Notes: generated from the sequence alone by a model not told the origin. A DNA stretch of 63,610 nucleotides from Candidatus Omnitrophota bacterium (GCA_016190215.1 JACPRA010000039.1:1-63610); one strand, 5' to 3'; counted from the stretch's first letter, positions 1 through 63,057 are shown. A program made the numbers and translations.

Positions 1-24
1 GCAGGGGGCGAGGGGCAGGGGACA
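1..24. repeat. G-rich heptamer-array arm (gcagggg gcgaggg gcagggg aca), probably cut by the window edge; inverted partner at 397-430
   Basis: Approximate reverse complement of the C-rich array at 397-430; the two arms bracket the four-helix-bundle ORF. Confidence 0.6.
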
Positions 25-486
25 TTAGAGCTTTCTCCCCAATGTAATAAGCATGGCTCTCAACCGATTGATGCGCGTTGACGTTGTCTCGAGTTCTTGT
101 TCACCCATAAAACCCAACTCTTTAGTTAAGCACAATTGTGTTTCTAGCTCGGCTAGAGAACCAATGGCAATATAGGTGGACTGACGGTATTCCGCACGGT
201 GATTCTTAGAGTGGCCCTCAGCCATGTTCGACGGTACAGATATTGCCGCGCGTTTCATTTGACTTGCTAAAGCGTAACGTTCTTCTGTTGGCAGCTTTCC
301 ACACAGACGATAGACTTCTTTCGTTAGCTCAATAGCTTCTTGCCAAACTCGAAGGTCTCTAAAACTCGCGATGGGCCGCGTATTGTTCGTGGTGCTTTCC
401 CCTGCCCTTGTCTCATGCCCCTTGCCCCTTAAAGATTGCGGACCCGATCCGCACGATGTCCGCGCCCTCTTCCACCGCGACTTCAA
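25..486 (-). CDS. four-helix-bundle protein (23S rRNA intervening-sequence protein family); true start probably near 372
   Basis: Translation FRDLRVWQEA...SVPSNMAEGH...GSLAELETQL fits the four-helix-bundle (S23p-like) family. The body is visibly AT-richer than its neighbours. The ORF-track N-terminus (TTG at 486) overlaps yggS and looks artefactual. No ATG/GTG/TTG lies near the expected start; an in-frame ATC is at 370-372. Confidence 0.75.
   Translation of the reverse strand: MKSRWKRARTSCGSGPQSLRGKGHETRAGESTTNNTRPIASFRDLRVWQEAIELTKEVYRLCGKLPTEERYALASQMKRAAISVPSNMAEGHSKNHRAEYRQSTYIAIGSLAELETQLCLTKELGFMGEQELETTSTRINRLRAMLITLGRKL
397..430. repeat. C-rich heptamer-array arm (cccctgc ccttgtc tcatgcc ccttgcc cctt), inverted partner of 1-24
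   Basis: 7-nt periodicity read directly; overlaps the last codons and stop codon of yggS. Confidence 0.6.
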
Positions 487-1102
487 AATCGTGCGACATG
501 CCCATCGAGAGCTTCAGCTCCCCCGGCGCGCGCGACAGCGACGAGGCGACCGCATCGCGGAGCCGCCGCAACCCCTGAAAACAGGGCCGCGCCGCCTCCG
601 GCGACTCGGCCAAGGGCGCAATCGTCATCAGGCCGGTCAAGTCCAACTGCCGGCAGGCCGCCACGGCTTGGGCCAGGCGCAGCGCCTCTTCCGGAGCGCA
701 CCCGAACTTCGTCGCTTCCCCGGAAACGTTTACCTGCACGAACACGCTCAGCCATTTCCGGCGGGCGGCGGCGTCGCGCTCCAAAACGCCGATCAGCTCC
801 AGGGAATCCACGGAGTGCACCGCGTCAAACACCTCCACCGCCGGCTTGGACTTGTTGCGCTGCAAGTGGCCGATGAGATGCCACCGCGCGCCGGTCCCGG
901 AGAGGATGGCCTGCTTTTCGCGGGCCTCTTGGACGCGGTTTTCCCCCACGTCGGTCAGGCCGCAGCGGATCGCCTCAGCCATGCGGTCCGCGTCCACGCC
1001 TTTGGTCACGCCGATGAGGAGCACTGAGGCAGGGTCGCGGCCGCAGCGCCGGCAGGCATCGGCAAGACGGATGTGGATGTGACGTAAGCGGTCGGCGATC
1101 AC
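413..1102 (-). CDS. yggS: YggS-family pyridoxal-phosphate homeostasis protein
   Basis: MIADRLRHIHIRLADACRRCGRDP..VLLIGVTKG...HLIGHLQRNK...SMGMSHDFEVAVEEGADIVRIGSAIF is the typical YggS/alanine-racemase N-terminal fold pattern; GTG start. Confidence 0.9.
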   Translation of the reverse strand: MIADRLRHIHIRLADACRRCGRDPASVLLIGVTKGVDADRMAEAIRCGLTDVGENRVQEAREKQAILSGTGARWHLIGHLQRNKSKPAVEVFDAVHSVDSLELIGVLERDAAARRKWLSVFVQVNVSGEATKFGCAPEEALRLAQAVAACRQLDLTGLMTIAPLAESPEAARPCFQGLRRLRDAVASSLSRAPGELKLSMGMSHDFEVAVEEGADIVRIGSAIFKGQGA

Positions 1103-1109
1103 GCGGGGT

Positions 1110-1139
1110 ACTCTAGCACAGGCACGGAGGGAGCGTCAA
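1110..1139 (-). promoter_or_regulatory. candidate sigma70 promoter for yggS (TTGACG-18-TAGAGT)
   Basis: Minus strand reads ttgacg ctccctccgtgcctgtgc tagagt, ending 7 nt before the GTG start, so the leader would be very short or absent. Confidence 0.35.
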
Positions 1140-1142
1140 CGA

Positions 1143-1227
1143 AGCACACAGCAGACAGCACACAGCATATAGAATATGACTCCTCTATCGAGGTGTGGTG
1201 TGCTGTAACCTGTGTGCTGTCTGCTGC
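1143..1227. repeat. heptamer-arm hairpin (agcacac agcagac agcacac agca / tgtggtg tgctgta acctgtg tgctgtc tgctgc)
   Basis: A 17-nt perfect complement (ctgtgtgctgtctgctg) sits within longer imperfect arms. The AT-rich loop is about 26 nt. The element abuts the ftsA stop codon (1229-1231). Confidence 0.7.
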
Positions 1228-1228
1228 C

Positions 1229-2398
1229 TTAAAAGTATTCAGTCAGGAGAGACTTGGCGCGGCCCAGCACGCGGTCTACGAAGCCGGCGCTGGAGCTGAG
1301 CTCCGGCGAGACGGCGGACGCGGCCTGGCCGGCGTGCGCGGCCCATAACCATTCCATCGCCCCGATGGCCGGGGTCAGCGCCACCTGGCGGGCGAGGTCG
1401 CCCAAGCGCCCGGCCCGGCTGCTTCGTCCCAGGGCCGCGCGCACCTGTGTCGCCGCTTCGACCCATTCGACGACGCCGTCCACCAGCGCGCCGCGCCCTG
1501 TGACAATCGCCGCGTCCGGCAGCGGCCGTCCGCTGAGCAATTGTGACATCCCGTCGCGCACCGGCTGCAAGTGCCGCTCGGCCAGCTCGCGCACTTCCGG
1601 CTTGAAGGCGGCCAATCCTTCCAGGCACATGGCCAGCGCTTGCTCATGGGTCAACCGGCAGGCCGCCGCAATCTCCTGCACGAGGGCCTGAAACCCCCAG
1701 GGAATGGTCACAGCGGCGGTCAACCGGCTGCCCTCGAAGAGCCCCAGCTCGGTGCTGCGGCCGCCGAGATCAATCAGCATCTGCGGCCCATCGGCCGAAC
1801 GCGCCCCGCGCTCCAGACAGGCCACGGCCGACGCCTGCAGCCCATACAGCAGGCGCTCGACCTCCAATCCCACCGACTCGCAGGCTTGCACCACCGCCTG
1901 CCGCACCGAGACCGGCACCGTCACCAGATGGAACCGGCCGTGCAGGCGCGTCGCGGCCAAGCCGCAGGGGTCGAGCACCCCGTCAAACCCGTTGCCGGCG
2001 TAGCCGAGCGGCTGCAGCCACAGCACATCGCGGTCCAAACTCAAGGCGTGGCTCACCGCCTGGGCTTGGAGCCGCTCAACATCGCGGCGCTTGACCAGGA
2101 CCGGCTCATCCGCCAATTGAATATGCGCGGTCACCTCCTGGTGGCCGAGATCTGGATGGTTCAGGACGACACTCGCCCGCTCCGGCAGCAACGTGATCCG
2201 GCTGTCCTGCAGGGCCTGCTCCAGCACCGGCCCGATGCGGGAGGGCTCCCCGGGCCAGGCCGGCAGGCCCAGCGGAAACGCCGCAACCCCCACTCCCAGG
2301 ATGTCTCCGCCATGCACGGGACCGTACCGCTGGGCCACCACGCACGCGATTTTTGTCGCGCCCAGGTCAATCGCCAACAACGGCCGACGCTTGATCAT
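1229..2398 (-). CDS. ftsA: cell division protein FtsA (actin-like ATPase)
   Basis: N-terminus LLAIDLGATKIACVV, DLGGRSTELGLF phosphate motif, amphipathic C-terminal tail VDRVLGRAKSLLTEYF; sits directly after ftsQ. Confidence 0.8.
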   Translation of the reverse strand: MIKRRPLLAIDLGATKIACVVAQRYGPVHGGDILGVGVAAFPLGLPAWPGEPSRIGPVLEQALQDSRITLLPERASVVLNHPDLGHQEVTAHIQLADEPVLVKRRDVERLQAQAVSHALSLDRDVLWLQPLGYAGNGFDGVLDPCGLAATRLHGRFHLVTVPVSVRQAVVQACESVGLEVERLLYGLQASAVACLERGARSADGPQMLIDLGGRSTELGLFEGSRLTAAVTIPWGFQALVQEIAAACRLTHEQALAMCLEGLAAFKPEVRELAERHLQPVRDGMSQLLSGRPLPDAAIVTGRGALVDGVVEWVEAATQVRAALGRSSRAGRLGDLARQVALTPAIGAMEWLWAAHAGQAASAVSPELSSSAGFVDRVLGRAKSLLTEYF

Positions 2399-3231: not shown

Positions 3232-4233
3232 TTAGCCTGCCGTCACCAAATGAGACGCCAGCGCCATGCCGATCAATTCCTCGCAGACATCCTCATAGGA
3301 CAATCCCACGCAGGCTGCCGCTTTCGGCAGCAGGCTGGTCGCGGTAAACCCGGGGATCGTATTCACCTCCAGAATCACCGGCGTGCCGTCCGCCGCCAGG
3401 ATGAAGTCCGCCCGGGACACGTGCCGGCATCCCACCGCCTGGTGCGCCCGCAGCCCGGCATCTTGCAGCCGCGCGGCCATCTCCGAGGGGATCTGCGCCG
3501 GCACGATGTACTGCGTTTGGCCCGCGGTGTATTTGGCGGCGAAGTCGAACATCCGCGAGCGGCCGGTAGCGGCCACGGGCTGAATTTCGATCACCGGCAG
3601 GGCGCGGTCGCCCAGCACCCCGACGGTCATCTCGCGCCCGACGATGAATTCCTCAATCAGCACGCGCGCATCATAGCGGGCGGCATCCGCCACGGCCGCC
3701 TCGCACTCCGCGGCGGTGCGCGCCAGCGACACGCCGATGCTGGAGCCCTGATTCGTCGGCTTGACCACCACCGGAAACGCCAGGCGCTCCACGGCGCGGC
3801 GCAGCCGATCGGCCGAGATGGGCCGCTCGATCAGGATGGATGCCGGAACGCGCAGCCCGGCTTCCTCGAAACAGTTCCGGGAGGCGACTTTGTCCAATCC
3901 GATGCGGCTGGCGCGGGGGTCGGAGCCGGTATACGGCAACCCCAGCTCTTCGCAGACCTGCTGCACGGCCCCGTCTTCCCCGAAGGGCCCGTGCAACGCC
4001 ACGAACACGACGCCGGGCCGCGCGGCCTGGAGCGCCTCGCGGGCCGAGCGGACCGCGTCCTCCACGCGGCCCTCTTTCGAAATCACCAGCGAGCGGACCG
4101 GCCATCCCCGGGCGGCCAGCGCCGCGGCTATGCCCTGCCCGCTGCGCAGCGAGATCTCGTGTTCGGAGGACGGCCCGCCCATCACCACCGACACGCTCAC
4201 GCGGGACGAGATCGCCTGCTGCTCTTCCGGCAT
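3232..4233 (-). CDS. ddl: D-alanine--D-alanine ligase
   Basis: VSVVMGGPSSEHEISLRSG, VFVALHGPFGEDG, VVKPTNQGSSIGV, LEVNTIPGFT. The ATG at 4231-4233 overlaps the murB TGA (ATGA). Confidence 0.9.
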   Translation of the reverse strand: MPEEQQAISSRVSVSVVMGGPSSEHEISLRSGQGIAAALAARGWPVRSLVISKEGRVEDAVRSAREALQAARPGVVFVALHGPFGEDGAVQQVCEELGLPYTGSDPRASRIGLDKVASRNCFEEAGLRVPASILIERPISADRLRRAVERLAFPVVVKPTNQGSSIGVSLARTAAECEAAVADAARYDARVLIEEFIVGREMTVGVLGDRALPVIEIQPVAATGRSRMFDFAAKYTAGQTQYIVPAQIPSEMAARLQDAGLRAHQAVGCRHVSRADFILAADGTPVILEVNTIPGFTATSLLPKAAACVGLSYEDVCEELIGMALASHLVTAG

Positions 4234-5144
4234 CAATGCCCTCCTGCTCTGCGGCCGTACCATCGCTCGCCCAACACCCGCACCTCCGGCTCCAGCCACA
4301 CGCCGGCGCGCTGCGCCACCCCCCGCTGGATGTGCTCCATGAGGGAGAGCACGTCCTCGCAGGTCGCCTGCCCCAGATTCACGATGAAGTTGGCATGGCG
4401 CTGCGAGACTTGCGCATCCCCGATGCGCGCGCCTTTGAATCCGGATTGGTCAATGAGCCGGCCGGCCGGCATGCCGGCCGGATTTTTGAACGCGCAGCCG
4501 GCCGAGGGCAAGCAGACATCCTGGGTGGTGTTGCGGTAGCGCAGCGCGCCCTGGATCCGCTCGCTGGAGGCTTCCGGCGTCACCATGGGAAACCGCAGGT
4601 CGGCGCTGACGACCACACCCGGCTCCAGCGCGGTGTATCGGTAGGCAAACCGCAGCTCTCCCGGTGTCAAGTGGCGCACCGCGCCCGTGGTGGTCACCAA
4701 GGTCACCTGGTCCACAAACCGTCCGATGTTTTGCGCGTTCATGGCCAGCGCGCCGCCGATCTGGCCCGGCAGGCCGGCAAGCAGCTCGAGGTCGCCCCAG
4801 CCATGGCGGCACGCCAGCATCACCAGGTGCTGCGTCGTCACTGCCGCGCCGCAGCGCACGCGGGCGTCCGACGCGTCCGGCTGGTCGTTCAAGACCTCGA
4901 CGGTGCGGAAGGTACGGCCTAAATGAATCATCAGCCCGCGCAGCCCGCGGTCGGCCACCAGCAGGTTCGTGCCGCCGCCGACCACGCAGACCGGCACCCC
5001 CGCCCGATGGGCCTCCCCCATCAGCTCGATGAGCTCCTCCATCGTCGAGGGCTCGGCAAACCACTCCGCCGGCCCGCCGATGCGGAAGCTCGTATGGTTA
5101 GCGAGCGGCTCGTTGGACCGTACGCAATCGAGCGGCCACGTCAT
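4233..5144 (-). CDS. murB: UDP-N-acetylenolpyruvoylglucosamine reductase
   Basis: NEPLANHTSFRIGGPAEWF, VVGGGTNLLV, SAGCAFKNP. Start taken at the internal ATG (5144); the ORF-track extension overlaps murC. Confidence 0.88.
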   Translation of the reverse strand: MTWPLDCVRSNEPLANHTSFRIGGPAEWFAEPSTMEELIELMGEAHRAGVPVCVVGGGTNLLVADRGLRGLMIHLGRTFRTVEVLNDQPDASDARVRCGAAVTTQHLVMLACRHGWGDLELLAGLPGQIGGALAMNAQNIGRFVDQVTLVTTTGAVRHLTPGELRFAYRYTALEPGVVVSADLRFPMVTPEASSERIQGALRYRNTTQDVCLPSAGCAFKNPAGMPAGRLIDQSGFKGARIGDAQVSQRHANFIVNLGQATCEDVLSLMEHIQRGVAQRAGVWLEPEVRVLGERWYGRRAGGH

Positions 5145-20172: not shown

Positions 20173-20257
20173 CGTCCATGGTCGACAGTCCACAGTCTAC
20201 GGTACCAATCGAAAATGATTGCTCGTACTGTGGACTGTGGTCTATGGACTGTGGACG
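20173..20257. repeat. heptamer-arm hairpin (gtcgaca gtccaca gtctacg / gtactgt ggactgt ggtctat ggactgt)
   Basis: Two 33-nt arms are imperfect reverse complements (about 24 of 33 positions by eye). The AT-rich loop is about 19 nt. Lies upstream of rbfA. Confidence 0.6.
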
Positions 20258-20273
20258 CCTTATCGCCAGAACG

Positions 20274-21053: not shown

Positions 21054-21082
21054 CCTTCACCCCTCACCCCCTACCCTTCACC
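21054..21082. repeat. C-rich heptamer array (ccttcac ccctcac cccctac ccttcac c)
   Basis: Four tandem 7-nt units read directly; fills the xerD-to-nucleotidyltransferase junction. Confidence 0.6.
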
Positions 21083-22038: not shown

Positions 22039-24656
<2,618 letters not shown>

Positions 24657-59629: not shown

Positions 59630-60321
59630 TCCGGAGAGCCGCCGGCGGCGTCCCGCGGGGGCAAAATGCCCGAGGGAATCGCGCACACCCGTCGGAGCGG
59701 CGGTCCGTTGGAGCGCTGGAGGACGACCTCCACCAGGCGCGGCAGCTCAGGCAGGCGATTCCATTGATCGCTCCATGCCGACGGCCCGCCGGCCTCCGGC
59801 GTCGCGACGGCGTAGCGGAACGCGGCGCGCTCGCAGCCCGGCAGCAGCAGACGCGCCAGCGGTTCCTGGCCGGCCCGGGCCTCTGTCGGCGATTGGCTCA
59901 GCCTCCAGAATCCCAACACGCCGTCGCGGGATTCACACACATAGCGCACCCATTCCACCCGCGCGGGGCTGCGGCCGGCGGACATCCAGGTCCGCCACTG
60001 GGCGGCCTCTGAGCCAAATCGGATCGCCGCGCCGCTGACCGAATCCTCCGGCGCCGGAACCTGCTCATCGCGGATGGCGCAGGACAGATCACGTTCCAGC
60101 CGATCGAGCGCGACCCATTGGCGCTGCCGATCTTCAGAGGTTTCCGACACCCGACGCCAGACCATGATCCCGCCCTGCAGATGGCTGAAGAACCCCACCA
60201 TCAGAATGGACGTCATCGTCGAGGCGACCATCAACTCCACCAAGGTAAATCCCAGAGCCGCTCGAGGCTCGAGGCTCGAGGCTCGAGGCAAAAGCGGATT
60301 TATCGACGGCGATTGCTGCAT
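59626..60321 (-). CDS. GspJ-like minor pseudopilin with a 24-aa leader
   Basis: Prepilin motif LG/FTLVELMVA after the leader MQQSPSINPLLPRASSLEPRAAL; position between the I-like and K-like genes. Confidence 0.6.
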   Translation of the reverse strand: MQQSPSINPLLPRASSLEPRAALGFTLVELMVASTMTSILMVGFFSHLQGGIMVWRRVSETSEDRQRQWVALDRLERDLSCAIRDEQVPAPEDSVSGAAIRFGSEAAQWRTWMSAGRSPARVEWVRYVCESRDGVLGFWRLSQSPTEARAGQEPLARLLLPGCERAAFRYAVATPEAGGPSAWSDQWNRLPELPRLVEVVLQRSNGPPLRRVCAIPSGILPPRDAAGGSPE

Positions 60322-60353
60322 GTCCCTTGAGCCTCGAGCCTTCAGCCTTGAGC
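60260..60353. repeat. heptamer-arm hairpin: (gctcgag)x4 / (ccttgag cctcgag ccttcag ccttgag)
   Basis: Complementary 7-nt arrays about 30 nt long. The 34-nt AT-richer loop holds the gspJ-like ATG (60319-60321). One arm is coding (PRASSLEPRAA). Confidence 0.8.
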
Positions 60354-60377
60354 TAAGACGTGTTTTCCCGCAACCTG

Positions 60378-60833
60378 TTAAAACCATTCCGGCGGCACCC
60401 AGTCGGTGGGATAGACGGCGGAGAGCGTCAGGGGAGCCGAAGAAGCTCCCTCCTGGCGCACCGTCAGCTCCAGCTCGCTCAACGGCACGCTGGTTCCCCG
60501 CGCAGGCAGCGCCTGCGCGCGAAGCGTCCAGCGCACCGCCTGGTTGGGCGCGGGAAACAGCACGTCGCGAATATCCCGAGGCAAACCGCGCGGGTCTGCG
60601 ACGAGACGGGCGTCAAGTTCCCGCCACTGCTCCTGGGCCAAGGCCAGCAGCCGGTCGCGCTCGTCCATCACCCGGATGGCGCGGAGTTGGCTGGACAGCC
60701 CCCGGCTGACGAACACGACCCCCACCGCCAGGACGACGGCTGAGAGGACAGCCTCAAGAAGGAGAAACCCGCTCCGTCTCTCCCTGCGAGACGGGCCGGC
60801 CTGTTGTGACGCGCGTTTCACCGGTTGTGTCAT
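60378..60833 (-). CDS. GspI-like minor pseudopilin
   Basis: SG/FLLLEAVLSAVVLAVG prepilin-type N-terminus; about 150 aa; overlaps the 3' end of the H-like gene, so the start is uncertain. Confidence 0.55.
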   Translation of the reverse strand: MTQPVKRASQQAGPSRRERRSGFLLLEAVLSAVVLAVGVVFVSRGLSSQLRAIRVMDERDRLLALAQEQWRELDARLVADPRGLPRDIRDVLFPAPNQAVRWTLRAQALPARGTSVPLSELELTVRQEGASSAPLTLSAVYPTDWVPPEWF

Positions 60834-61290
60834 CCACCGTAATCGTGTAGGCGAGGCCCTCCGCTTGGAGTATCAGCGTCGTGGCCTCGCTGGTCCCATC
60901 TGGAAACATCTGCAGGCAATCGCATGCCGCCCGCACCCCCTGCCTGGTGACCTGTACCGAGAGATTCTTCGAAAGCGGAGGGCCGTCCCGTCCCAGCTCA
61001 GCGTCGGAGCCCTGCGCTGCCGATTCGATCCGGGTCTGATGAGTGTTGGCATCCCACCGCCACGTCAGCGGGCGGGATTGCAGCACCGCCTGCGCCCGAG
61101 CGAGGCGAAGGCTTTGCGCCATCGTATACGCCGCCTGCTCGACCCGAAGGCGATGCGCCGTCTGCTGCAATCTCGGGACCGCCCCCGTCACCAGGATCGC
61201 CAGCGTGGCGGACACCAAGACCACCTCAATGAGCGTAAATCCTTGGAGGGGCACGGGGCGAGGGGCATGGGGCACAGGACTCAACCGCAT
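60754..61290 (-). CDS. GspH-like minor pseudopilin with a 17-aa leader
   Basis: MRLSPVPHAPRPVPLQG/FTLIEVVLV. Start taken at ATG 61290 in the hairpin loop. Confidence 0.6.
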   Translation of the reverse strand: MRLSPVPHAPRPVPLQGFTLIEVVLVSATLAILVTGAVPRLQQTAHRLRVEQAAYTMAQSLRLARAQAVLQSRPLTWRWDANTHQTRIESAAQGSDAELGRDGPPLSKNLSVQVTRQGVRAACDCLQMFPDGTSEATTLILQAEGLAYTITVDDTTGETRVTTGRPVSQGETERVSPS

Positions 61291-61330
61291 GATTCTGTTG
61301 TTTTCACCCTGCCCCCTGTCTCCTGCCCCA
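61245..61330. repeat. heptamer-arm hairpin: (aggggca cggggcg aggggca tggggca) / (ccctgcc ccctgtc tcctgcc cca)
   Basis: A G4-tract array faces a C-rich array. The 26-nt loop holds the gspH-like ATG. The G-rich arm is the antisense of the leader-peptide codons. Confidence 0.8.
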
Positions 61331-61333
61331 TAT

Positions 61334-61765
61334 TCATTGCCAGTTTGCAACGTCGTCGCGTCCCGGCTGGCCGTCCGGACCCAATGACGAGAGATCGTAA
61401 TCCTGACCGTGCTGTGATTCGCGTTGATACAGATACGGCCGCCCCCACGGGTCGTTCGGCAGCCCGCGCTTCAGATAGGGGCCGCGCCACCTGCCCCGAG
61501 TCTCTTCATCCAGCTCCGAGGGCGCATCCCGGGCGATCAACGGATCCAGCCTCGACGGATAGGCGCCGGTGTCCAATTCATACAAGTCTAACGCCAGCCC
61601 GATGGCCGCAAGATCGGAGGCGGCGCGGGCCGTCTTCGCCTGCTCGGTGCGGCCGGCCATCCGCGGCACCACCATGGCGGCCAACACGCCGATGATGACC
61701 ACCACCAGCATCAACTCCACCAGCGTGAATCCCTTGAGGGGCAAGGGGCATGGGGCAAGGGGCAT
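61334..61765 (-). CDS. gspG: major pseudopilin GspG
   Basis: MPLAPCPLPLKG/FTLVELMLVVVIIGVLAAMVVP....A.......DL..I..AL..Y..D.G.YP, then PNDPWG.PY.Y. An alternative upstream ATG at 61843 overlaps the gspF stop. Confidence 0.85.
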   Translation of the reverse strand: MPLAPCPLPLKGFTLVELMLVVVIIGVLAAMVVPRMAGRTEQAKTARAASDLAAIGLALDLYELDTGAYPSRLDPLIARDAPSELDEETRGRWRGPYLKRGLPNDPWGRPYLYQRESQHGQDYDLSSLGPDGQPGRDDVANWQ

Positions 61766-61819
61766 GGGACGACCCCGTGTATCCCAAGAGATTCTGCTTG
61801 GTTCACACCCCTGCCCCAT
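61736..61819. repeat. heptamer-arm hairpin: (aggggca aggggca tggggca aggggca tggg) / (cacacccctgccccat)
   Basis: Long G4-tract array with a shorter C-rich partner. The array covers the gspG start codon and leader codons. Confidence 0.7.
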
Positions 61820-61839
61820 AAGGCATGCGTTGACTGTGC

Positions 61840-63057
61840 TCATTGCACGACCAATCCGATTTGAAACACCGGCAGCAGCATTGCCAACACAATCACCATG
61901 ACCATCCCTCCAACGAACAGCAACAACACCGGTTCCAACACCGTGGTCAGCAGGCGCACGGCGCGCTCGATCTCCCGCTCGTAGACGGCGGCGATCTTCA
62001 GCAGCGCGCCATCCACCGTGCCGCTCTCTTCTCCCACCGCCACCATGTGATGCACCGCCGCCGGAAACGCTCCCGTCGCGGCCAAGGCGCCGGCCAACCC
62101 GGCCCCGCCCCGGATGGCATCCTGGACGCCGACGATCGCCTGCTGCAGCCAGCCGCGTCCCAGGTGCCGGCTCCCCACCTCCAGCGCCTGCAGCATGGGC
62201 ACGCCCTGGCGGACCATGATGCCCACACTGCGCACGAAGCGTTCGATCTCCAGCTTCCGCAGCAGCGCGCCAATCCCAGGAAGCCGCAGCAGCAGCCGAT
62301 CCAGCGCCTGGCGGCGCGCCGGATCTTTCAGCCACCGCATCCCAACACCCGCCGCGCCGATGCCGGCGATCGCCAGCGCCCACCACCAGCGCGTGAATAG
62401 CGCGCTGATGCTCACGAGCAGCCGGGTCGGCCACGGCAGCGCTTGGCCGGACTCGAGAAAGACCAACGACAGCTTTGGGATCACGTACACCAGCAAAAAG
62501 ACGGTCATGCCTAACGCCACGCACAGCACAAAGATGGGATAGGCCGCAGCGCCGGCCACCCGGTCCCGCAGATCAGCTTCATGCTCCCCCAGCTCCGCCA
62601 ACCGGTTGAGGGCGTCCTGCAAGGTGCCCCCGGCTTCTCCCGCGCGGATCATGCTGCGATAGAGCGGCGGAAAGATGTCCGGGTGGTCAGCCACCGCTTC
62701 GCTCACGGACCGCCCCTGCTGGACGGCCGCGGCCAGCTCGTTGATGACCTGCCGAAGCGCGGGATGCTCGGTCTGCTTGGCCAGCAGCGACAGCGCCCCG
62801 GCCACCGGCACGCCGCCGCCGAGCACATCCGCCCATTGCTGCGTCATCGTCGCCAGCGCCCTGACCGAGACGCGCCGGAACGCCAGCCGATGGCGCAACG
62901 AGGCCGGCGCACGGACTTCGGCCACCGACACCGGCACGATTCCGCTTCTTCCTAATTGGGTAATGGCGGCAATCTCATCATCCGCCTCCAGCGTGCCTTC
63001 TACCAGCTCGAATGCGGAGGTTTTGGCTCGATACGCAAATCGGGGCATGCGCGTCAC
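61840..63057 (-). CDS. gspF: GspF/PilC-family platform protein
   Basis: Two repeats of the T2SF domain (SM..AGE.GG.L...L and AVGEESG.VD..L), three TM segments. Confidence 0.9.

Follow-up and report, generated by a model that had tools for sequence, protein, structure and literature searches.

A 63,610-nucleotide (nt) stretch of DNA from a Candidatus Omnitrophota bacterium (GCA_016190215.1; hereafter "the window") opens inside a cassette that lies between two co-directional genes, yggS and proC. The cassette comprises an open reading frame (ORF) of the four-helix bundle (4HB) family, PF05635, bracketed by two arrays of tandem heptamers that are inverted relative to one another. We read it as a stem-loop cassette of the type known from 23S rRNA intervening sequences (IVSs), residing in an mRNA instead of an rRNA; this reading is probable, although by no means secure. 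The combination of a stem with a 4HB ORF recurs across the protein family and across phyla. Sequence comparisons indicate that the cassette has been inherited at the yggS/proC junction, and that selection has acted in this lineage both on the 4HB protein and on the arms. By analogy with rRNA-borne elements, the stem is probably cut by RNase III.

To our knowledge, 23S rRNA IVSs and their S23p ORF have been without an accepted function or origin for ~30 years, and we know of no role for the "four helix bundle protein" family, which is annotated across many bacterial phyla. The stem-plus-ORF architecture described here is found at about half of ~165 sampled relatives, mostly in mRNAs between co-directional genes, with arms that covary. 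It suggests a common origin for the scattered heptanucleotide repeats of cyanobacteria, Beggiatoaceae, and Geobacter. It also matters for annotation, since gene callers mis-set the starts and stops of genes beside the arms.

The yggS/proC cassette and its predicted stem

Coordinates are those of the window, and the mRNA of yggS, the cassette, and proC corresponds to its minus strand. The 5′ arm (397..430) reads AAGGGGCAAGGGGCATGAGACAAGGGCAGGGGAA on the mRNA strand and consists of five G-rich units (from 430 to 397: AAGGGGC AAGGGGC ATGAGAC AAGGGCA GGGGAA); Tandem Repeats Finder calls a period-7 array at 405-430. The 3′ arm, which is C-rich on the mRNA, is also the 5′ end of proC (1..25). Positions 1-24 read CCCCTGCCCCTCGCCCCCTGC on the mRNA strand, which splits from 24 to 1 into (TGT)CCCCTGC CCCTCGC CCCCTGC. 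The window begins inside this arm, so that 24 of its ~36 nt are present and the remainder lies before position 1. Contig L174, which matches the window over 1122/1122 bases and extends 1.2 kb beyond position 1, supplies the remainder; it was reached via a truncated gene call, P0047, a search with the YggS protein having given two contigs that end inside the cassette. The full 36-nt 3′ arm (TGTCCCCTGCCCCTCGCCCCCTGCCCCTCGCCCCCTT) pairs with the 5′ arm over 26 bp (−50.6 kcal/mol; z = −4.1 relative to shuffled C-rich arms), and the long-range stem is present in the minimum-energy and centroid folds alike of the complete cassette (466 nt). The structure predicted for the transcript is a 26-bp stem between the arms, with the ORF in a loop of ~370 nt. 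Elsewhere in the window, comparable pairing with the 5′ arm is offered only by two like-unit hairpins near 61.3 and 61.8 kb. The original prediction, made from the window alone, had described the two arrays as approximate reverse complements and expected the full left arm to pair with 397-430; both statements hold, the latter once the L174 extension is added.

The ORF in the loop (25..486, minus strand) matches PF05635 (23S_rRNA_IVP) over residues 43-147 and profile positions 1-105 of 106 (E 2e-34; 118.3 bits against a cut-off of 33.8), as well as TIGR02436, "four helix bundle protein" (112.5 bits; cut-off 24). The gene body (25..372, with its stop codon at 27-25) has 115 codons with zero internal stops and keeps 20/20 clade-invariant residues. 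It is AT-richer than its surroundings, as originally noted, at 46% GC with 43% at third codon positions, compared to 68% and 84%, respectively, for yggS. The nearest solved structure is PDB 2GSC (XCC0516; E 3e-19), which PMC4990558 gives as a homopentamer where it cites Lin 2006. A homologous four-helix-bundle fold is found in Avd of diversity-generating retroelements, and both proteins are pentameric and nucleic-acid-associated. It is nonetheless highly implausible that the cassette is a remnant of such a retroelement with the 4HB protein as its Avd accessory protein. There are weak matches to bAvd (PF22296, 21 bits), NF033474 (27 bits), and the PHROG entry "Avd protein of DGR" (E 1e-5), but the first two fall below curated cut-offs (40 and 80 bits) and the match is below the equivalog cut-off; moreover, the called neighbors lack reverse-transcriptase domains, no reverse transcriptase gene is adjacent, and no template/variable repeat pair was seen. 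PADLOC models gave zero matches at E ≤ 0.01, and thus no sign of membership in a defense system.

The likeness to 23S rRNA IVSs that was first proposed from the layout is upheld as far as architecture is concerned: in the IVSs of Coxiella burnetii (helix 45) and Leptospira, a PF05635 ORF likewise lies in the loop of a long inverted-repeat stem. The terminal stem of the Coxiella IVS spans 28 bp, compared to 26 bp here, and RNase III cuts have been mapped inside the Coxiella stem (PMC4990558). Immediately before the S23p start, that IVS carries two to three tandem GACAGAT heptamers along with a degenerate fourth copy, the number varying by strain (PMC4990558). Similarly, tandem heptamers occupy the 5′ side of our stem beside the ORF start, and the ancestral start codons lie inside the five units at 397-430. 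The Coxiella S23p ORF is decaying and probably untranslated (PMC4990558), a second respect in which the two elements are alike (see below). There are also differences. The yggS/proC cassette lies in a protein-coding operon and not within helix 25 or 45 of 23S rRNA, and its arms are translated and supply the stop and start codons of its neighbors. An Rfam scan of window positions 1-1400 gave no match to rRNA or any other family. Lastly, RNase III excision has been shown for the rRNA elements, whereas we propose it here by analogy.

The order of genes in the operon is ftsQ-ftsA-yggS-[cassette]-proC-yggT, with ftsW, murG/C, murB, ddl, ftsQ, ftsA, and yggS on one side of the cassette and proC and yggT on the other; ftsA (1229-2398) is one of three minus-strand genes in the first 2.4 kb. 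The host is an uncultured, high-GC organism whose nearest public relatives are labeled Omnitrophota or Planctomycetales. Three independent assemblies (the window and contigs L001 and L002) break at the C-rich arm, no more than ~40 nt from where the 4HB gene ends. Of the three Logan contigs with the locus, L001 and L002 stop inside the cassette and L174 spans all of it. Contigs that carry relatives are often just 0.5–2 kb long. The arms probably fragment short-read assemblies, such that the context of the family is under-sampled.

Arms within neighboring genes, and related cassettes

Both arms extend into the neighboring coding sequences. YggS, a pyridoxal phosphate-binding protein of the YggS/PROSC family (413..1102, minus strand; PF01168, E 6e-22), ends in ...IGSAIFKGQGA; its five final codons (KGQGA) and its stop codon, TGA, lie within the 5′ array, as the original prediction had it. 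None of 80 YggS orthologue tails from many phyla ends in KGQGA, and G-x-R follows straight after ...IF in 79 of them; the idea that the array altered the end of yggS would have failed had orthologues without the cassette shared this tail. Outside the window, KGQGA occurs only in L255, a bearer of the same cassette. Other array-bearing YggS proteins have tails of their own: 23 array-encoded residues in L091, and KSSE from an AGTGAGT array in L004. The native YggS C-terminus has been displaced by the element, because orthologues keep G-x-R and the exceptions carry arrays. An ATG at 416-414, within the 5′ arm, overlaps the yggS stop codon as ATGA.

On the other side, the proC ATG (25-23) overlaps the TAA of the 4HB gene as TAATG, and proC codons 2-8 lie inside the window. 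Past position 1, L174 continues with ...CTCTAATGTCCCCTGCCCCTCGCCCCCTGCCCCTCGCCCCCTTACGTGGTCAGCGGATTGGTGTGATCGGCGCTGGC, and the resulting ProC begins MSPAPRPLPLAPLRGQRIGVIGAG. Its first 12 codons (MSPAPRPLPLAP) are the entire 3′ arm; the canonical LRGQRIGVIGAGNMG comes next, and yggT follows the gene. ProC thus carries 12 extra N-terminal residues, translated from the 3′ arm.

The nearest 4HB proteins are 60–77% identical to that of the window, several of them from metagenome-assembled genomes of Omnitrophota, and many have N-termini (MGQG..., MGRG..., or MIRGHGARDTGRG) that are array-encoded. The closest relatives examined at the DNA level (L255, L091, and L087) all have G-rich and C-rich heptamer arms. 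In L255 (4HB identity 76.5%), yggS ends in KGQGA with AAGGGGCAAGGGGCGTGAGAC, the 4HB ATG comes six bases on, the 4HB TGA overlaps the proC ATG (ATGA), and the ProC N-terminus, MTRAPRPVPLAP, derives from the C-rich arm. L091 (75%) has the order ftsQ-ftsA-yggS-4HB-proC-yggT-ileS, with ATGA overlaps on both sides of the 4HB gene. In L087 (71%), the cassette lies at a different junction, between wzm and wzt: wzm overlaps the 4HB gene as TGATG, the 4HB gene overlaps wzt as GTGA, and (CCCTCGC)n encodes the Wzt N-terminus. Both the minimum-energy and the centroid fold of L091 and of L087 retain the long-range stem; in L255 it has 27 bp (−50.9 kcal/mol). Two further genomes, L004 and L003, have a gene-less heptamer hairpin at the same yggS/proC junction, with a 55–60-nt loop and the units AGTGAGT and GTGATTA.

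The flanking genes have diverged far more than the cassette. Identity to the window is 42–50% for FtsA, 51–58% for ProC, and 59–67% for YggS, compared to 75–77% for the 4HB protein. Between the window and L255, 31/35 nt of the 5′ arm and 32/38 nt of the 3′ arm are identical, with nearby synonymous sites saturated. These differences in divergence argue that the cassette is old, inherited, and constrained, and not a fresh insertion. The 4HB genes of the window and L255 are identical at 0.80, 0.85, and 0.43 of first, second, and third codon positions, respectively, which shows purifying selection on the protein in the lineage. The original prediction that a cassette had inserted at the end of yggS is thus right in that the native tail was replaced; the cassette is not, however, a recent local insertion, as it occupies the same junction in genomes whose flanking proteins are just 42–67% identical.

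Of the other members of this 4HB clade, one locus, L083 (~4200-4380; P0021, 185 aa), contains ~60 additional residues (RLRRRPRPWPGRNAALLLRRDVAPWRGGGCLAEARRAKAGKRVPRACPGGSTI) midway through the helical bundle, encoded by a GC-rich insertion that keeps the frame. This insertion may be a nested element.

PF05635 loci across phyla

We surveyed the flanks of 4HB genes in samples taken independently from genomes (one per species; 93 loci) and from metagenomes (72 loci), ~165 loci in total. The loci were drawn from among the matches listed, as relatives of 40–57%, and are broad samples as opposed to a census of the G-rich clade; the phyla covered include Bacteroidota, Acidobacteriota, Clostridia, candidate phyla radiation groups, Planctomycetota, Chloroflexota, and Xanthomonadales. 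Arrays were scored by 7-nt periodicity within 165 nt upstream and 150 nt downstream of the ORF ends, with a threshold of ≥15/21. An upstream array was found at 60% of genome loci and 57% of metagenome loci, a downstream array at 65% and 64%, and arrays on both sides at 44% and 49%; the corresponding values for control windows are 2–4%. Together with L255, L091, and L087, these figures confirm the expectation, raised when the window was first described, that other 4HB genes would have flanking heptamer arrays.

The arrays are mostly of four to five units and lie no more than ~25 nt from the ORF ends. Units vary by locus, with GTGACAA, TAGTGGT, GTATTGA, GGGACCG, AGGAATC, and CGGTTTT among them. 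RNAduplex z-scores computed on 150-nt flanks (~90 loci) were uninformative, since long GC-rich flanks pair with anything; we therefore compared heptamer consensus units instead. The upstream unit is the reverse complement of the downstream unit, with at most one mismatch, at 27/41 genome loci and 26/35 metagenome loci, compared to ~4% under a permutation null. Because the units are locus-specific, their complementarity amounts to covariation of the two arms on a large scale. The 5′ arm is purine- or G-rich at 31/40 loci, with units that group loosely around NAG[T/G]G[A/G]N.

These data also bear on another explanation, namely, that the 4HB ORF is a small operon gene like any other and that the low-complexity repeats beside it arose by chance. 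High-GC genomes do indeed abound in short runs rich in G or C. Nevertheless, the window has 13 period-7 arrays, compared to 1.6 ± 1.1 after triplet shuffling; arrays on both sides occur in 44–49% of family members and only 2–4% of control windows; and reverse complementarity between paired arrays exceeds the null rate ~15-fold. The array statistics already contradict this explanation, which we regard as scarcely credible.

Other properties of the locus are likewise shared by the family. Same-strand ORFs lie tightly on both sides at 71% of loci, and none of 20 related loci tested with Rfam is located in an rRNA. Cultivable bacteria with a cassette in an mRNA include Flavobacterium, Elizabethkingia, Myroides, and Pseudoxanthomonas (loci L172, L123, L120, and L141). 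The 4HB gene is below its flanks in GC content at 92/94 loci, by a mean of 8 percentage points and with a slope of 0.82 relative to host GC. AT-richness is therefore a trait of the family, of which the difference of 22 points in the window is an extreme.

Several loci (L097, L116, L133, L155, L132, L103, L136, and L185) contain two or three 4HB cassettes within 2–3 kb. The heptamer unit usually differs per cassette, and there are additional gene-less arrays of the same units nearby. In L136, a truncated 4HB copy lies directly upstream of a full copy, with GGTGAGG arrays in both. We considered two identical cassettes in L217 (901-3117) as a case of transposition and rejected it: they are part of an exact 1160-nt tandem duplication that includes TatA-like genes, and that is either real or an assembly artefact.

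Lost start codons, possible mechanism, and gene-less hairpins

The 4HB frame has no in-frame ATG, GTG, or TTG between 483 and 372. The absence of a start codon near the family-typical site was part of the original prediction; to this we add the ATG at 416-414, which is offset by one base from the reading frame of the gene body and opens only a 30-codon ORF (324..416). Comparison with L083 and L255 identifies 373..416 as a decayed 5′ leader. The called start in L083 is a GTG in GGGGCGTGAGAC (with the homologous GTGAGAC) that overlaps the upstream stop codon. In L255 the start is an ATG in GAGACATGGGGCAGGGG, and the homologous codon of the window is AAG (409-407). Neither the ATG at 416-414 nor the codon at 409-407 that was once an ATG shares the frame of the body, so that the window has no complete translatable 4HB gene; automated gene calls start only at an internal Met (66 aa, P0047). 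Between 416 and ATC 372 the window has exactly 7 nt fewer than L083 has in the homologous interval from GTG to ATC, and between AAG 409-407 and ATC 372 it has 2 nt fewer than L255. The comparison with L083 would fit loss of one unit; that with L255 points to small lesions instead. The missing start is not an assembly error, because all three independent assemblies share the sequence. It is accounted for by decay of two recognizable ancestral start codons. As each has either been lost or fallen out of frame, the 4HB protein is probably no longer produced from this copy, while the RNA stem persists.

The exact 7-nt difference raises the possibility of a slippage switch. Seven not being a multiple of three, gain or loss of one unit in the array with the start codon would toggle the 4HB gene, and would change how YggS ends or ProC begins; the copy in the window would be OFF. 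Start codons in the clade do fall within the array or at its edge, and heptamer number in the Coxiella IVS is strain-variable (PMC4990558). However, the arrays are identical in three to four independent assemblies of each of three alleles, with no copy-number variation between samples; imperfect units suppress slippage; and the lesions relative to L255, a T-to-A change in the ATG and a net loss of 2 nt, are not a clean unit loss. We consider such a switch quite improbable.

The body of the gene keeps every clade-invariant residue, which implies either recent inactivation or unconventional translation. The latter would begin at ATC 372 or at TTG 486 within yggS, or would involve a +1 shift on GGG-G to give a YggS-4HB fusion. 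In its favor, all 115 codons of the body are intact, with a GC content of 46%; the 4HB ORF is read in the +1 frame relative to yggS, and GCA TGA follows a run of four G residues. On the other hand, there is no X XXY YYZ slippery heptamer in the ATG frame; the GGG-G before the yggS stop codon is not positioned like the prfB site; when GGG occupies the P site, GCA and not the stop codon fills the A site; the only gene call is the internal one; and two separate lesions hit the ancestral starts. We therefore give unconventional translation little credence.

If the cassette is indeed an IVS-type element in an mRNA, a mechanism can be sketched in which RNase III cleaves the stem, as it does in the rRNA-borne members of Coxiella and Leptospira. 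The 4HB segment would thus be set free, with yggS and proC left on separate messages. Ribosomes that finish translating yggS would unwind the 5′ arm, thereby freeing the 3′ arm with the proC initiation region, and this opening of the stem could keep proC translationally coupled to yggS across an insertion of ~400 nt. Since the period of 7 is not divisible by 3, the stop, start, or Shine-Dalgarno-like triplet of a unit would be presented in all three frames.

Several considerations weigh against an IVS-type element. First, cleavage between yggS and proC would sever a housekeeping operon, possibly at a cost. Second, both arms are partly translated, and ribosomes may keep the stem open. Third, the purifying selection evident from the codon-position data shows that the protein is of consequence in the lineage, which would be left unexplained by a selfish element acting purely at the RNA level. 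Fourth, there is no sign of mobility: the copy at this junction looks vertically inherited, with arrays identical across independent assemblies of one allele. Fifth, around half of the family loci are below the array threshold on the both-sides criterion. Lastly, shuffled G-rich and C-rich arms also pair well in high-GC genomes (mean −35 kcal/mol), for which reason stem energy alone is weak evidence.

Arrays without a 4HB gene are found elsewhere in the window, in the form of six further inverted-heptamer hairpins and one single array, each with its own unit (1137-1230, 20173-20258, 21054-21082, 22520-22610, 60251-60358, 61246-61330, and ~61733-61818). The units are AGCACAC, ACTGTGG, TCACCCC, CAGCAGA, GCTCGAG, and, twice, AGGGGCA. 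All lie at co-directional minus-strand junctions: ftsA/yggS, the 3′ end of cca, xerC-like/cca, the 3′ end of ligA, and three junctions of type II secretion pseudopilin genes. In the three consecutive GspJ-, GspH-, and GspG-like genes (60255-60387, 61246-61350, and 61737-61840, minus strand), the hairpin is translated in frame in the prepilin leader, directly before the G|FTL(V/I)E cleavage motif (e.g., MGQGCEPSRISWDTRGRPMPLAPCPLPLK-GFTLVELM). The two AGGGGCA hairpins (61246-61330 and ~61733-61818) have arm homology with the 4HB cassette, including the odd GGAGACA unit and an ATGGGGCAGGGG start. These two pseudopilin hairpins may be gene-less derivatives of the cassette.

The most interesting alternative builds on these hairpins. 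The cassette would be a mobile system resembling REPtrons, in which a RAYT gene lies between inverted repetitive extragenic palindromic (REP) sequences; the pentameric 4HB protein would recognize its own five-unit arms, as DNA or RNA, and spread or maintain the hairpins, with gene-less hairpins being non-autonomous. As with REPtrons and REPINs, a small gene is bracketed by hairpin repeats, and gene-less hairpins are found at operon junctions. The six further hairpins of the window, the arm homology of two of them, the additional same-unit arrays near cassettes at other loci (e.g., L097 and L132), and the grouping of 5′-arm units around one motif are all in its favor. So is the low GC content of 92 of 94 family genes, as mobile genes are usually AT-richer than their host, and so is the match between arrays of mostly four to five units and the homopentamer reported for XCC0516 in the passage of PMC4990558 that cites Lin 2006. 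Unlike REPtrons, however, the cassette has only PF05635 and bAvd-like matches and no Y1-transposase (RAYT) domain, and its periodic heptamer arrays vary between copies where REPtrons have one conserved REP sequence. The 4HB family has no known catalytic motif or nuclease or recombinase fold; no pair of filled and empty sites and no target duplication was found; the sole duplicated cassette (L217) belongs to a tandem duplication that includes neighboring genes; and for most of the window's solo hairpins, the unit bears no relation to that of the resident cassette. On balance, a REPtron-like system is unlikely.

Arrays of heptanucleotide repeats at gene boundaries have been described previously: TAACTGA repeats in Beggiatoaceae and the short tandemly repeated repetitive (STRR) sequences of cyanobacteria (PMC4679880), and the GGGACCG and MTYCTGA elements of Geobacter metallireducens (PMC2700814). 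Like the arrays described here, they have two to six units, are often upstream of starts, and occur in many copies and in several phyla. The reported repeats are, however, direct, with one unit per genome, and neither a linked gene family nor paired inverted arrays are mentioned (PMC4679880, PMC2700814); an inverted arrangement was noted for one case among 170 repeat sets (PMC4679880). By contrast, the arrays of 4HB loci are reverse-complementary pairs around one gene, with a locus-specific unit. Bracketing of the 4HB family by heptamers appears to be unreported in the literature searched, in which the Coxiella report was the only one found to link the family with heptamer repeats; most subscription journals lay outside the search. 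A broader proposal is that PF05635 cassettes and heptamer stems form one widespread class of operon-embedded elements, of which the 23S rRNA IVS is a special case: a pentameric 4HB protein would read its own arms of about five units, the 7-nt period would let the cassette sit at any gene junction, and gene-less hairpins, including STRR-like ones, would be non-autonomous derivatives. We put this forward tentatively, as rather unlikely to hold as a whole.

Rickettsia palindromic elements are in-frame palindromic insertions in genes; they are organized differently at the sequence level and are not known to have heptamer periodicity or an associated gene. Hairpin repeats likewise occupy intact frames in the ProC N-terminus, the prepilin leaders, and loops of YggS in L003, L004, and L091. 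In these three genomes, heptamer hairpins or single arrays lie in frame inside yggS itself (L004, 10194-10265 and 10601-10631; L003, 10193-10262 and 10646-10676; L091, ~2370-2425, 2560-2590, and 2840-2870). The yggS gene of the window has no internal heptamer arrays. The intra-yggS arrays recur at two or three shared positions in loops, following QEAR.KQ..L and preceding LSMGMS, with a unit that differs per genome, and they resemble in-frame palindromic elements.

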